From Eledone cirrhosa (taxonomy: Eukaryota): a DNA stretch of 28,275 nucleotides. How positions within the stretch are numbered: the first letter of the stretch is position 1; each line of letters starts with the position of its first letter. The notes below the pieces were generated by a model. That model was not told the DNA's origin. It saw only the letters and a list, made by a program, of their open reading frames with translations, and did not search any database. The translations under genes and the position numbers were made by a program. The stretch is from positions 1 to 28,275 of the forward strand of contig CAXHJY010000926.1 in NCBI GenBank assembly GCA_964016885.1. Reading direction: 5' to 3'. Shown here piece after piece: positions 13,608 to 28,050 of the stretch.

Positions 13608-13970
13608 GATATTAAACAAATGGAAACTATATTTATAAAACCATATTTATTTCATTATACATATTTCGGGGATACCATATTAAAAATATGGCATGCCTTC
13701 TTCAGATAAAATACAATATATAAGCAGTTTTATAAATAATTTTGACTTACCATAAATATTGATCAACTTTCATATAAGAAGTTGGTTTGCCATGCCATAT
13801 TTTTAATATGGTATCCCCGAAATATGTATAATGAAATAAATATGGTTTTATAAATATAGTTTCCATTTGTTTAATATCGTATATCTACTCCAAAACTTGT
13901 TGAGTGCTTTATATCAGTTATAAAATATTTACTTGTTGTAACCCAACAATTTTAAATAAAACTTTTGCAT
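13602..13970 (+). mobile_element. Family B fold-back/tail element
   Basis: Perfect 94-bp inverted arms at 13602-13695 and 13791-13884, tail to 13970, (TA)n on both sides. Confidence 0.8.
13648..13713 (-). ncRNA. Near-intact type-I hammerhead ribozyme
   Basis: Minus strand: tattttat-CTGAAGA-a ggcatgccatat tttta atatggtatccc c-GAAA-tatgta-TA-atgaaata. Stem I has 8 bp (1 GU), stem II is long, and stem III is quasi-palindromic. Confidence 0.7.
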
Positions 13971-13988
13971 ATATATATATATATATAT

Positions 13989-14197
13989 AACGAAGGAAAT
14001 GTGGTAAGGAACCAGGTGGACCATAACGCACCAAAGTACTCAATACTTGGGGTAGTAGAGTGGGTAATAGGAACCAGTAAGACCCCGACGGCTGAGCTCA
14101 AGCCGTTTCGACGGCTAATTCTGGACTAAAATATTTTAGTCCAGAATCAGCCGTCGGTCGAAACGGCTTGAGCTCAGCCGTCAGGGTCCTACACGTT

Positions 14198-14201
<4 letters not shown>
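13989..14201 (-). mobile_element. Family A fold-back/tail element
   Basis: Same length and junction as 13358-13570, with a few substitutions. Confidence 0.8.
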
Positions 14202-15691: not shown

Positions 15692-16104
15692 ATTGTCTAT
15701 TTAGTATCATAGTCCTATTGATGCTTGGAAACAGTACAGTGTTTGAAATATATTTGATACTGTTGTTGCTATTGGTGTTGTTGTAGTATTATACATTAGT
15801 GTGATACGACGGAGAGTTTTAATTGTTTCTACTTTAGGCACAAGGCCAGCAAATTACCCAGTGCATTACTGGTACTTTATTTTATCGACCCCGTAAGGAT
15901 GAAAGGCAAAGTCAACCTCGGCGGGATTTGAACTCAGATCGTAAAGGGACGTAACTATGCTGGAAAGCATGGCGTCCGACCCTCTACCGATACTGCCAAT
16001 TGTCTCTTTAGTATCATAGCGCTATGGATGCTTGGAAATAGTACAGTGATTGAAATATATTTGATACTGTTGTTGCTATTGGTGTTGTTGTATTATACAT
16101 TAGT
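15692..16104. repeat. ~107-bp direct duplication flanking a SINE
   Basis: 15692-15800 and 15999-16104 (attgtct.tttagtatcatag...tattatacattagt) are clearly similar. Confidence 0.9.
15820..16000 (-). mobile_element. tRNA-derived SINE, young full-length copy
   Basis: Reverse complement of the 8771-8952 unit, nearly identical. Confidence 0.9.
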
Positions 16105-16105
16105 T

Positions 16106-16294
16106 TGGTGGATTGGCAGTATCGGTAGAGGGTCAGACGCCATGCTTTCCAGCATAGTTACGTCCCTTTACAGTCTGAGTTCAAATCCCGCCGAGGTTGA
16201 CTTTTTGCCTTTCATCCTTACGGGGTCGATAAAATAAAGTACCAGTAATGCACTGGGTAATTTGCTGGCCTTGTGCCTAAAGTAGAAACAAATT
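16106..16294 (+). mobile_element. tRNA-derived SINE, young full-length copy
   Basis: A box tggcagtatcgg, B box gagttcaaatcc, same body and end as the other copies. Confidence 0.9.
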
Positions 16295-16599
16295 AAATTA
16301 AAGACAAGCACACAATCACAGCGTTTTAATAGTATATAGATCATAGATTTTAAATGAAGATATAAACTTTGTTGTGCTGTCTTTTCACATTTGGTCATCA
16401 TTTTCATCATCCTCTGGCATGTGTACTTGATATGATATCAACATTGTCACCTCTTTGGTCACATGTAGATATGTAGAGCACAACAATATATACACACATA
16501 TATTTATATGTATCGCCAGTGTCAACTCTTTTACCGTCCAGGCTATTAAGCTTATTTTATAAGATGTTTATACCAACTCGATGCATGAAGCCATCATTT

Positions 16600-17980: not shown

Positions 17981-18041
<61 letters not shown>

Positions 18042-18052
18042 TAGATAGATAT

Positions 18053-18305
18053 CTTTCTTTATTTGCCACAAGGGCGTACAAAATATGGGACATTGCAATA
18101 CGTGACGGCGGGGGTTTTCCAAATTGTGTAAACTTTAACATTAATAAATTAAGATTGATAATTAGATGTATATATTATATGCAGCTAAGTATCTATCTAA
18201 CTAGCTATGTTAAAACCTCTTTTTACACGATTGTATATAAAATCCCCACCGTATGTCTTTGTATTGTCCCCTTTTCTCACGCATCCTTGTGGCAAATGAA
18301 GGATT
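18053..18305. mobile_element. Two oppositely oriented 3'-UTR ends of the L1/Tx1-like LINE family
   Basis: 18053-18136 (minus) and 18222-18305 (plus) both resemble tgtccc...cttgtggc.aataaagaaa at 22600-22640. Confidence 0.6.
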
Positions 18306-18334
18306 CTATCTATTTATGTATCTATATATATATA

Positions 18335-18524
18335 TAGGAAAATGTTTAACCCCGACGGCAGAGCTTAAGCCGTTTCGATGACTATTTCTGGCCCAGAAAT
18401 AGCCGTCGAAACGGCTTGAGTTCTGCTGTCAGGGTTAAACATTTTCCTATTACCCACTCTACTACACTTAAGTATTGAGTACACTGGTGCGATATGGTCC
18501 ATCTGGTTCCCTACCACACCTCCT
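18335..18524 (+). mobile_element. Family A subfamily fold-back/tail element
   Basis: Palindrome taggaaaatgtttaaccc...gggttaaacattttccta plus tail ttacccactctactac...ccacacctcct. Confidence 0.8.
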
Positions 18525-18629: not shown

Positions 18630-21976
<3,347 letters not shown>

Positions 21977-22171
21977 TAGGAACCAGTAAGACCCCGACAG
22001 CTGAGCTCAAGCCGTTTCGACGGCTAATTCTGGACGTCCAGAATTAGCCGTCGAAACGGCTTGAGCTCAGCTGTCGGGGTCTTACTGGTTCCTATTACCC
22101 ACTCTACTACCTCAAGTATTGAGTACTTTGGTGCGTTATGGTCCACCTGGTTCCTTACCACATTTCCTTCG

Positions 22172-22173
<2 letters not shown>
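21977..22173 (+). mobile_element. Family A element: perfect 118-bp palindrome plus 79-bp tail
   Basis: 21977-22035 is the exact reverse complement of 22036-22094. Tail at 22095-22173, (TA)n flanks. Confidence 0.85.
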
Positions 22174-22256
<83 letters not shown>

Positions 22257-22259
<3 letters not shown>

Positions 22260-22640
22260 CCAGCAACTGATTCTCTCATTCAAATACCACTTTGGAAGAA
22301 GAATCAGGATGGAGAGAGAGGTGCTGTACCCCAGCAAGTTTTATGAAAGGTGGGTGAAAGTGGCGAGAATGGCCCGAGTGAATGGGCCTTCTCTCTATAT
22401 CAGCTTGTAGGTTGAGGAAAAAGAGGAAAGGGGTACTCACTCCTCGTACTCCTGGAGATGAGGGTTGCACATTTTTTCGGGGGTATGTGTTACCCTTATG
22501 TAATGTCTGCCCCTATTGGGGAAAATCGATTAACTTTTAAATTGTATTTGTGATAATATTTTAAACGTTTTTATTGTATGGAAACTTCCCCCTTTGTAAT
22601 TGTCCCCTTCTTCTGTGCCCCTGTGGCTAATAAAGAAACA
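22257..22640 (+). mobile_element. 5'-truncated LINE 3' end (L1/Tx1-like): ORF2 C-terminal remnant plus 3' UTR
   Basis: Open frame [50 protein letters not shown] ending at 22410, with an F..RW terminus as recalled for Tx1/L1 ORF2. AATAAA at 22629-22634. (TA)n on both sides. Confidence 0.6.
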
Positions 22641-22652
22641 TATATATATATA

Positions 22653-22747
22653 TAGGAACAAGTTCCTATTACCCACTCTACTACCATAAGTATTGAGTAC
22701 TTTGTTGCGTTATGGTCCATCTGGTTCCTTACCACAATTCCTTCGTT
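22653..22747 (+). mobile_element. Family A minimal copy: 7-bp hairpin plus full tail
   Basis: taggaac-aa-gttccta followed by ttacccactctactac...ccttcgtt. Confidence 0.8.
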
Positions 22748-22937
22748 ATCTATATATATTTAGTAATATGGATATAAAACATATACATCTGTGTCCATGT
22801 GTGTCCTACTATGTGTATATTGAGTGTTTGTATGCCTGTGAATGTGTAAATGTGTGATGTGGTTCTATGTTTCACCTACATATATCTAATTCCAGAATAC
22901 CTGCTTGTTTGTTAATGCCCAATGATGAAATATTTCG

Positions 22938-23522
22938 GTCTATGTTTCTCACTATTTGTAGTTCCTTTCATTTTATTTGTCTAAGTAAGAAAGAAGAGAA
23001 AATTAATCATTTTATCATATACGTTACCAACTGATATATAACCTTCGTACTTATTCTCCTCGCCAAATCAAGCTAAACGGGTCAATAAAAAATATGTGAT
23101 AACCAGACCTGGACTCCCGGAATTGCTGTTAAAATATATATATATATATATTTATTTATTTATTATATTTATTTATTATTTATTATATTTATTTATTATA
23201 TTTATTATATTTATTTATTATATTTATTATATTTATTTATTATATTTATTTATTATTTATTATATATATATATATTTATTTATTATTAAAATATATATAT
23301 ATATATATATATATTATTTATTTATTTTATTTATTTTATTTATTTATATGTTTGACTGATCTCTATTTAAGTCATTTATTGAAAGCGTAAGTACTGGCGA
23401 GGAGAATAAGTACGAAGGTTGTATATCAGTTGGTAACGTATAAGATAAAATGATTAATTTTCTCTTCTTTCTTACATAGACAAATAAAATGAAAGGAACT
23501 ACAAATAGTGAGAAACATAGAC
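22938..23522. mobile_element. 585-bp element bounded by 128-bp inverted repeats
   Basis: 22938-23065 versus 23395-23522, with about 3 mismatches. The centre is a (TTTA/TTA)n tract. No TSD recognised. Confidence 0.7.
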
Positions 23523-23890
23523 ATGTGTTGTATCGTCCCCTTTAGCTGGATAGTTTAATATTTCACGATTAACCAGTGATCAGACGATATATAATTCCTT
23601 TCTACTGTGTTATTATCATCACAATCGTGAGAAGATTTGAGCTCGATTGACTGACGTGTGTTGTATTATTTGTCCCTTTTAGCAGGACAGTTTAATATTT
23701 CACGTTGAACCAGTGATCTGACGACGTATCATTCCTTTCTGCTGAGTTATTATCTTCACAGTCGTGAGGAGATTTGAGGTCGGTTGTTTCACGTGTGTTG
23801 TATTGTCCTCTTTAGCAGGATAGTTTAATATTTCACGTTGAACCAGTGATCTGATGACATATCATTTCTTGCTACTTACTTATTGTCATC
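23523..23890. repeat. ~135-bp tandem repeat, about 2.7 copies
   Basis: tgtgttgtat..gtcc..tttagc.gga.agtttaatatttcacg..aaccagtgatc recurs at 23523, 23656 and 23793. Confidence 0.9.
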
Positions 23891-24374
23891 AAAGACTTTA
23901 ATAAATGAACACAATAATCTGTGAGTATGGCAGATTTTCCGGCTTGTTTGGGTGTTTTTGCTCAAGATCGTAGATAGAATAACATTGGAGAAGATTTATT
24001 TACATTCACATTAAAGCAAATGAAAGTGTTAGATACATATACCTGAGTGAGATAAAGTTTTGAAATATATCATACCAGTTTCAAACATTAAAGATTTGTT
24101 CATGTTCATTTCCATATCATATCTCTCCATTTGAAATTTTTTGGTTTTACAAGTTTCAAAAGGGAATAAAATATCTCTAAACAAATGTAAATCCAGAGCT
24201 ACTCATTCATAGATTTCATATCTAGCGAACTGTAAATTTATTTCAATACGGAAAGTATGAAAAACAAACAAACAGACGAAAATATTTTTCAGAAACATCC
24301 TACGTGCTCGCGTAATTATAAGCTTTAATACGTTGACATACACAAACATATAGAAAATATAGATACATAAACAT

Positions 24375-28050
<3,676 letters not shown>

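Follow-up and report, generated by a model that had tools for sequence, protein, structure and literature searches.

The window, by which we mean the whole 28,275-nt stretch of DNA analysed here, is eukaryotic and microsatellite-rich, and a search for tRNA genes in it found none. It contains seven copies of a repeat that we call family A, together with copies of two further, unrelated families (B and C) that have the same layout: an inverted arm, a main arm and a tail. The family A copy at 21977 is the focus of this analysis, and its parts are as follows.

21977–22035, minus strand: tail-less inverted arm, which starts at the fixed site (TAGGA on the plus strand) and adjoins a 3.3-kb AT run
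22036–22094, plus strand: main arm, the exact complement of the inverted arm, with no spacer
22036–22080, plus strand: 3′ half of a type I hammerhead, predicted from the sequence
to 22052, plus strand: predicted 3′ strand of helix II, followed by the predicted GAAA at 22053–22056
22057–22073, plus strand: predicted helix III with a palindromic GAGCTC loop
22073–22075, plus strand: predicted GUC triplet, followed by the predicted 3′ strand of helix I at 22076–22080
22095–22173, plus strand: one-sided tail of 77–79 nt with (TA)n at its end

Comparison of the two arms shows that 21976–22095 is a perfect palindrome of 60 + 60 bp without a spacer. The 118-bp palindrome described in the initial annotation corresponds to 21977–22094 and is correct as far as it goes, the true extent being 60 bp per arm, and the A/T variant (gacAgctg/cagcTgtc) that it reported is indeed present on both arms. 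The palindrome leads into the tail and then into (TA)n, so that the copy has TA runs on both sides; AATT occurs on both arms, 16 nt apart. The other six family A copies are:

4088–4200, minus strand: seventh copy, diverged and decayed, with a single arm and no tail
5819–5871, plus strand: tail-less arm with its turn at the helix III hairpin, followed by unrelated sequence
13358–13570, minus strand: copy with a near-symmetric junction and a 4-nt duplication, its arms differing at 1 of 44 positions
13989–14201, minus strand: copy with the same junction as 13358, its arms being two haplotypes that differ at 4 of 44 positions
18335–18524, plus strand: copy of a diverged subfamily, its arms differing at 5 positions and its tail entering another repeat
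22653–22747, plus strand: copy with arms of 7–8 bp, a 2-nt spacer and a full tail

A core 23-mer of the family has 9 matches in the window and none in 100 shuffles. In all six copies recognised initially, TAGGA beside TA repeats opens the tail-less arm, as had been claimed; the claim that every copy also closes at a matching TCCTA fails for the 5819 copy, which has neither that end nor a tail. One-sided tails with fixed boundaries are present in five of the seven copies, and in four of those five they measure 77 nt to the last non-TA base or 79 nt with the TA, in good agreement with the distance of about 79 nt first given between the fixed TA and the 3′ end. Main arm and tail together fold no better than shuffles (z 0.91, 0.30, −1.25 and 0.57).

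The initial annotation had the sequence turn back in the GAGCTC palindrome, in the helix II hairpin or after 7 bp. In the 5819 copy, a 20-bp stem with a 7-nt loop whose right arm ends after the stem, the turn does fall in the GAGCTC loop of helix III, and the centres of 13358/13989, 18335 and 21977 do lie in the helix II region. The 22653 copy turns 7–8 bp from the fixed end, at a place outside any hammerhead helix. The 13358 and 13989 copies share their centre, the 4-nt duplication and a G-T mismatch and do not share their flanks; they are therefore probably not independent events, and the helix II junctions, originally counted as four separate turn-arounds, represent three events at most. 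Segmental duplication of this pair was considered and rejected, since the flanks align only as AT-rich noise. The centre of the 21977 copy equals theirs minus a 12-nt AT core, the 4-nt duplication and the mismatch.

The 4088 copy, which the initial annotation had missed, starts without a tail at a site equivalent to the fixed site of the others. Its local alignment score against a family A arm was reached by 1 of 2000 shuffles, and by eye 26 of 30 letters agree with the loose-end consensus of 1325 reads from one of the sequencing runs described below (X21). It has a long helix II and a decayed candidate for a hammerhead core of the U3-A8 type (4194–4188), with a fold z of −1.4, and passed neither full hammerhead descriptor.

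Hammerhead motifs and likeness to Penelope-like elements

The main arm of family A reads, in order, as a helix II strand, GAAA, helix III with its palindromic loop, GUC and a short helix I strand. Sister arms matched a half-hammerhead descriptor at 13478, 14109, 14160 and 18376; the focal copy, which lacks the 5′ hammerhead core, has a G-U pair and was for that reason missed by the strict form of this descriptor. Neither the strict nor the looser full descriptor found a complete hammerhead in any family A copy in the window. For the window as a whole the strict descriptor returned no complete hammerhead and the looser one returned two, against a mean of 0.1 in 40 shuffles. These two belong to families B and C, of which the window holds the following copies.

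13602–13968, plus strand: family B copy with identical arms of 94 bp, a 95-nt spacer and a tail
4667–4845, plus strand: tailed family B copy whose arms measure 84 nt (inverted) and 10 nt (main)
12677–13027, minus strand: family C copy with arms at 12735–12829 and 12931–13027 and a 101-nt spacer

In both families the complete hammerhead is found only on the tail-less arm, with its core at 13705–13699 on the minus strand in the 13602 copy and at 12833–12839 on the plus strand, within the spacer, in family C (fold z −2.1). Family B is AT-rich, with a tail of about 88 nt and a minimal hammerhead, and the presumed tail of family C, 12677–12734, is assigned from a single copy. In all three of these assembled copies the inverted arm is longer than the main arm. 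The tail-less arm in family C and the 4088 copy in family A both stop at the 5′ edge of helix I, and this shared end may mark the 5′ end of the RNA or a stall site.

No hammerhead was among the Rfam matches listed for the window (150 of 200), nor among the full set of matches for 4075–4205 and 5680–6040; Rfam matches to miRNA and plastid families were rejected as artefacts of composition or of hairpins. Just upstream of the 5819 copy, 5705–5785 contains a CTGATGA ... GAAAC motif that looks hammerhead-like by eye; it failed the hammerhead descriptors and folds no better than shuffles. At 23520–23894 there are three tandem units of ~130 bp, two of them with a CTGANGA motif, among which the descriptors found no complete hammerhead.

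Family A is likely to be a high-copy repeat made up of the 5′-truncated pseudo-LTR (pLTR) ends of a Penelope-like retrotransposon (PLE). PLEs are described as leaving 5′-truncated copies with an inverted copy at the 5′ end and a one-sided tail of 30–40 bp (PMC8557442, PMC8969392, in the portions available). Family A has such an inverted, 5′-truncated copy at its 5′ end, joined through a palindromic junction, and is inserted in AT-rich or microsatellite DNA, as PLEs are. No direct partial-tandem arrangement of pLTRs occurs in the window; in the reads, a joint between 13986 and 14067 links a tail end to the following arm (35 and 8 reads).

Comparison with individual groups, on the available text, gives the following picture. 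EN+ PLEs (Penelope/Poseidon, Neptune and Nematis; PMC3846280, PMC8557442, PMC11167929) share with family A the 5′ truncation, the inverted copy at the 5′ end, the palindromic junction, the one-sided tail, AT-rich or (TA)n targets and a hammerhead, of which family A has a predicted 3′ half, upstream of both end sites. They differ in tail length (30–40 bp in published PLEs and 77–79 nt in family A), and family A is known as remnants of ~200 nt with no linked ORF, both of whose ends begin with TA. Naiad and Chlamys PLEs resemble family A in their (TA)n or microsatellite targeting, inverted copies, tail and very high copy numbers (PMC8557442), and the preference of Naiads for (TA)n is described in a second source as well (PMC8969392); Naiads reportedly lack canonical hammerheads (PMC8557442, available text), whereas family A has a hammerhead-like motif. 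With the type I hammerheads of PLEs, as presented in the accessible part of PMC4209133, family A has in common GAAA, a helix III with a palindromic loop, GUC, a short helix I and a long helix II, and the U3-A8 core variant that is reported there for Schistosoma PLEs has its candidate in the 4088 copy. Unlike these ribozymes, the hammerhead of family A is a prediction in which no single copy holds a whole motif that passes the descriptors, and its helix III, of 5–6 bp, is longer than in the minimal metazoan form. Non-LTR retrozymes, proposed to be derived from PLEs, are likewise short, non-coding and hammerhead-bearing (10.64898/2026.07.22.740005, in the part available), but they form head-to-tail tandem arrays, whereas family A copies are dispersed and head-to-head, which sets them apart from retrozymes.

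Because no RT or endonuclease gene is linked to family A, its membership of the PLEs rests on architecture; an ORF scan of 22200–24400 found no RT or GIY-YIG ORF in that span. The family motifs had no matches in metagenomes (two scans) or in viral and prokaryote contigs. A coding role for the tail was also considered and was not supported, the single match of its 45-aa frame being to an unrelated repetitive protein. Family A is a real feature and most likely belongs with a known kind of element, with a tail longer than those published, the arrangement of arm, arm and tail being in itself ordinary for PLEs. The retroelement, ribozyme and fixed-end readings of the initial annotation hold up.

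The fixed end and the arm junctions in sequencing reads

We mapped four of 23 public runs (X1, X4, X21 and X22; runs with a small share were left out) to the 13989 copy, whose coordinates are used for all loose ends and joints. X1 and X4 consist of assembled contigs, and X21 and X22 are raw RAD reads from two other animals, in which family A accounts for ~0.2% of the reads (24,848 of 12.47 million and 25,643 of 12.79 million). Among the 24 loose-end records listed out of 567, loose (TA)n ends at position 14067 were recorded in 3527 X21 reads, 3074 X22 reads, 98 X1 contigs and 2 X4 contigs. The fixed end is present in both of the other animals, and so this part of the initial annotation extends beyond the assembly. 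Run X4, which carries a different organism label (B), holds 42 family A contigs, some with the same fixed end. Two X1 records (14033–14082 and 14043–14081) suggest subfamilies with a tail ~25–35 nt shorter.

The central proposal of the initial annotation was that the second arm had been copied from the same molecule by self-priming, with the arms of a copy expected to be more alike than arms of different copies. This expectation is borne out in three of the four testable copies, which have 0, 1 and 5 differences between their arms over ~44 nt, and not in the 13989 copy, which has 4. The copy with 5 differences is 18335, which does carry its subfamily sequence on both arms, as had been noted, in the form of matched variants. 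The 13989 main arm is 1 difference away from 21977 and its inverted arm 2 differences away from the main arm of 13358, and both arm haplotypes are common in the reads (14075 C>G and 14080 A>G in ~38% of first-mate-plus X21 reads). Matched arms do not discriminate between mechanisms, because two transcripts of one donor or later homogenisation would give the same result.

Arm length bears on the question differently, in that the fold-back of one cDNA requires an inverted arm no longer than the main arm. Fifteen of 28 joints were listed, 13 between opposite strands and 2 that are skips; with the tail-to-arm joint set aside, 12 were tabulated, and in 11 of these 12 the inverted arm is nominally the longer. 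Seven of the 11 have ends at the positions of loose ends and could for that reason be breaks in the alignment of diverged subfamilies. Two others reach 14067 exactly on the inverted side: 14073–14127 (62 and 30 reads and 2 X1 contigs; inverted side 61) and 14073–14121 (11 and 11 reads; inverted side 55), both of which are asymmetric because a 150-nt read leaves too few letters for an equal main arm. Joints 14058–14127 (2 and 61 reads), where the main strand ends within the tail, and 14090–14126 (15 and 13 reads) have letters in common where their two sides meet, and both are probably direct joints. X1 contigs have the same asymmetric geometry at 14070–14157 and 14040–14156. Overall, the inverted arm exceeds the main arm in about six read junctions, from few loci.

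The arms of 21977, 13358, 18335 and 22653 are as expected of a fold-back; the asymmetric joints depart from this expectation in arm length, and 13989 in the mismatch of its arms. Since the inverted arm exceeds the main arm in about six read junctions and in the three copies of families B and C, fold-back fails as a general rule. Self-priming still fits 5819 and the near-symmetric copies, and it is likely that fold-back explains a subset of copies such as 5819. The further proposal that the fixed TA is the point at which a fold-back is resolved is not supported: the single-arm 4088 copy starts at the equivalent site without a tail, and the fixed site therefore behaves as a start point rather than a resolution point.

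Symmetric junctions are under-counted in both kinds of data: RAD reads are cut at AATT, as their ends at 14120 and at 14130 indicate, and palindromes are often collapsed in assembled contigs. The spacer-less 21977 junction, with AATT on both arms, is absent from the 15 joints listed, a set in which it would scarcely be expected to show. The junction type of 13358 and 13989 appears in ~24 raw X21 reads, and no X22 read extends past 14153. RAD ligation chimeras near AATT were considered as a source of the joints and are not the whole explanation, as two such joints are also present in X1 contigs.

Origin of the paired arms

How the inverted repeats and tails of PLEs form is named as an open question in the available text of PMC8557442. 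Self-priming was inferred in 2013 from the palindromes at inverted junctions, with an antisense template (PMC3846280, available part). In vitro, the PAc protein, a predicted dimer, cuts and extends both target strands, and its reverse transcription starts at two sites that bound the tail (PMC11167929); in its accessible portion this study accounts for the tail and not for the inversion, and the phrase "twin priming" does not appear there. In twin and dual priming of L1, two breakpoints lie close together (PMC11702581, PMC2837659, in the portions available), which resembles the cluster of family A joints at 14070–14073. L1 and family A also have in common that oppositely oriented pieces are joined internally and that the non-inverted piece often ends beside the second start. 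They differ in that the second start is one fixed site in family A and a varying internal site in L1, and in that family A arms often overlap as a duplication and have no poly(A), target duplications being unreadable in (TA)n. In the literature consulted we found no proposal of twin priming for PLEs, an idea that older reviews and biochemistry (2004–2006) may contain. The layout and the self-priming idea are both already published, and the mechanism of the initial annotation is neither new nor sufficient.

We put the probability at about one half that both cut target strands primed cDNAs from two fixed RT starts and that these cDNAs were then joined head to head. We infer every step of this reaction from the fixed end, the tail, the TA context, the two types of junction and the hammerhead-like motifs. 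A PLE protein with RT and GIY-YIG domains, not seen here, would cut (TA)n on both strands; one target end would prime at the end of the tail and the other at an internal site 77–79 nt upstream, both starting at TA. If a single RNA served as template, the first cDNA would end within the tail or shortly beyond the internal site, which would leave a short main arm opposite a long inverted one. Where there were two RNAs, or strand displacement took place, both cDNAs could extend further and stall in the long helix II, whose two strands would yield copies able to anneal; symmetric palindromes would be the outcome. The cDNA ends might then join through hairpin-derived complementarity or short homology, which would bias the junctions to helices II and III, and true fold-back (5819) and later homogenisation or deletion of arms would modify some copies. 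Matched arms would be transcripts of one donor, and the mismatched arms of 13989 would reflect two templates or later conversion from a neighbour.

The presence of the fixed end in six of six copies and in raw reads counts for a fixed RT start. Two priming events are favoured by the asymmetric joints and the three copies of families B and C, by the position of both complete hammerheads on tail-less arms, by the tail-less 4088 and 5819 copies that start at the fixed site, and by the 13989 arms being two haplotypes common in the reads; the in vitro behaviour of PAc and the close breakpoints of L1 point the same way. In about six read joints and the three B and C copies the inverted piece is not derivable from the non-inverted one, a pattern that later partial deletion of a palindrome can mimic. 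Other observations also count against two priming events. Four of the five tailed family A copies are near-symmetric, which speaks against priming on a single RNA unless there was strand displacement or a second RNA, and the loop-less centres (21977; 13358/13989) are more easily explained by a hairpin or by trimming at a later stage. In most of the joints listed, 0–1 nt is shared, so that hairpin-guided joining gains no support there. The start site of PAc is not homologous to its target, whereas TA opens both ends of family A; at 77–79 nt, its tail has roughly double the published length of 30–40 bp, and no RT or endonuclease gene is linked.

In a general fold-back, a cDNA started at the end of the tail would bend back at a hammerhead hairpin, serve as its own template and find its resolution at the fixed TA. 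This would explain why subfamily variants match on both arms in three of four copies, why 5819 turns exactly at helix III and why the centres of 13358/13989, 18335 and 21977 fall in the helix II region, where, judging from loose ends at 14130, the 13358/13989 centre may have a natural apical hairpin; the published self-priming proposal, on antisense RNA (PMC3846280, available part), lends it a precedent. We nevertheless consider it unlikely, given that inverted arms exceed main arms, that junctions lie inside the tail, that inverted arms of families B and C carry sequence absent from the main arm, that 4088 has a single arm, that the arms of 13989 are mismatched, that no hairpin lies at the 22653 junction and that the centres keep no natural loop. 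We are similarly doubtful that palindromes formed rarely and were then copied as units or reshaped after insertion, in which case the junctions would not record integration. The common junction, duplication and mismatch of 13358 and 13989, in unshared flanks, would suit such a history, as would the 21977 centre being a reduced form of theirs and 20 X21 reads that may come from an allele resembling 13358 whose inverted arm has lost a short piece, and template switching is known to homogenise the arms of inverted repeats (PMC8604942, PMC8794818, in the parts available). But this junction type is rare (an X1 depth of ~300–3800 against 4–5 million, as a rough measure), many different junctions exist, and main-arm ends cluster 3–6 nt past the fixed site, which is unexpected from random deletion.

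It is improbable that family A is instead a MITE, a Helitron-like element or another TA-inserting DNA element with inverted repeats. TA targets, inverted repeats, the missing link to an RT and the lack of a hammerhead among the Rfam matches listed would all be compatible with this, but the inner ends are variably truncated, some copies are tail-less, and three families have hammerhead motifs on the upstream side of the fixed site; a MITE in particular was rejected, as the 77–79 nt tail follows one arm only, lengths vary and the repeats are not terminal at both ends. Least of all do we believe in a fold-back artefact of reads or assembly. The 21977 junction is known from the assembly alone and lies beside the 3.3-kb AT run, where polishing could have equalised the arms, but the symmetry ends at the same site in every copy with the tail never mirrored, raw reads from other animals contain the fixed end and one symmetric junction type, and RAD reads and X1 contigs have two asymmetric joints in common.

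This first small sample of junctions favours two priming events over self-priming. Family A is abundant enough to provide a large natural set of junctions that could decide between the models, with arm lengths and arm haplotypes as the test. We also entertain, tentatively, the broader idea that PLEs routinely integrate by programmed twin priming, with a dimeric RT-endonuclease, two fixed sites on the RNA and helix II as the point of stalling or annealing. If this were true, a single reaction would account for tail, inverted pLTR and junction palindrome alike, the ribozyme would serve a structural function besides cleavage, and thousands of junctions in several families of this genome would preserve a record of that reaction.

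Further repeats in the window

Additional inverted pairs are found at 18040–18318, at 2182–2404 and at 22938–23065 with 23395–23522, the last two flanking AT-rich runs; these are possibly more families with the arm–arm–tail layout. Between the focal copy and the one at 22653, 22257–22640 contains a short frame, which had no Pfam match and ends in what we take to be a Tx1/L1-like C-terminal motif, followed by a 3′ region patchily similar to 18040–18318. SINE-like repeats, which presumably resemble octopus repeats, are present at 7969–9147, 9961–10048 and 15818–16297, in tandem at 8014–9147 and as an inverted pair at 15818–16297. Finally, 10689–12559 is made up of ~23 copies of an 80-bp unit whose identity declines from one end to the other.
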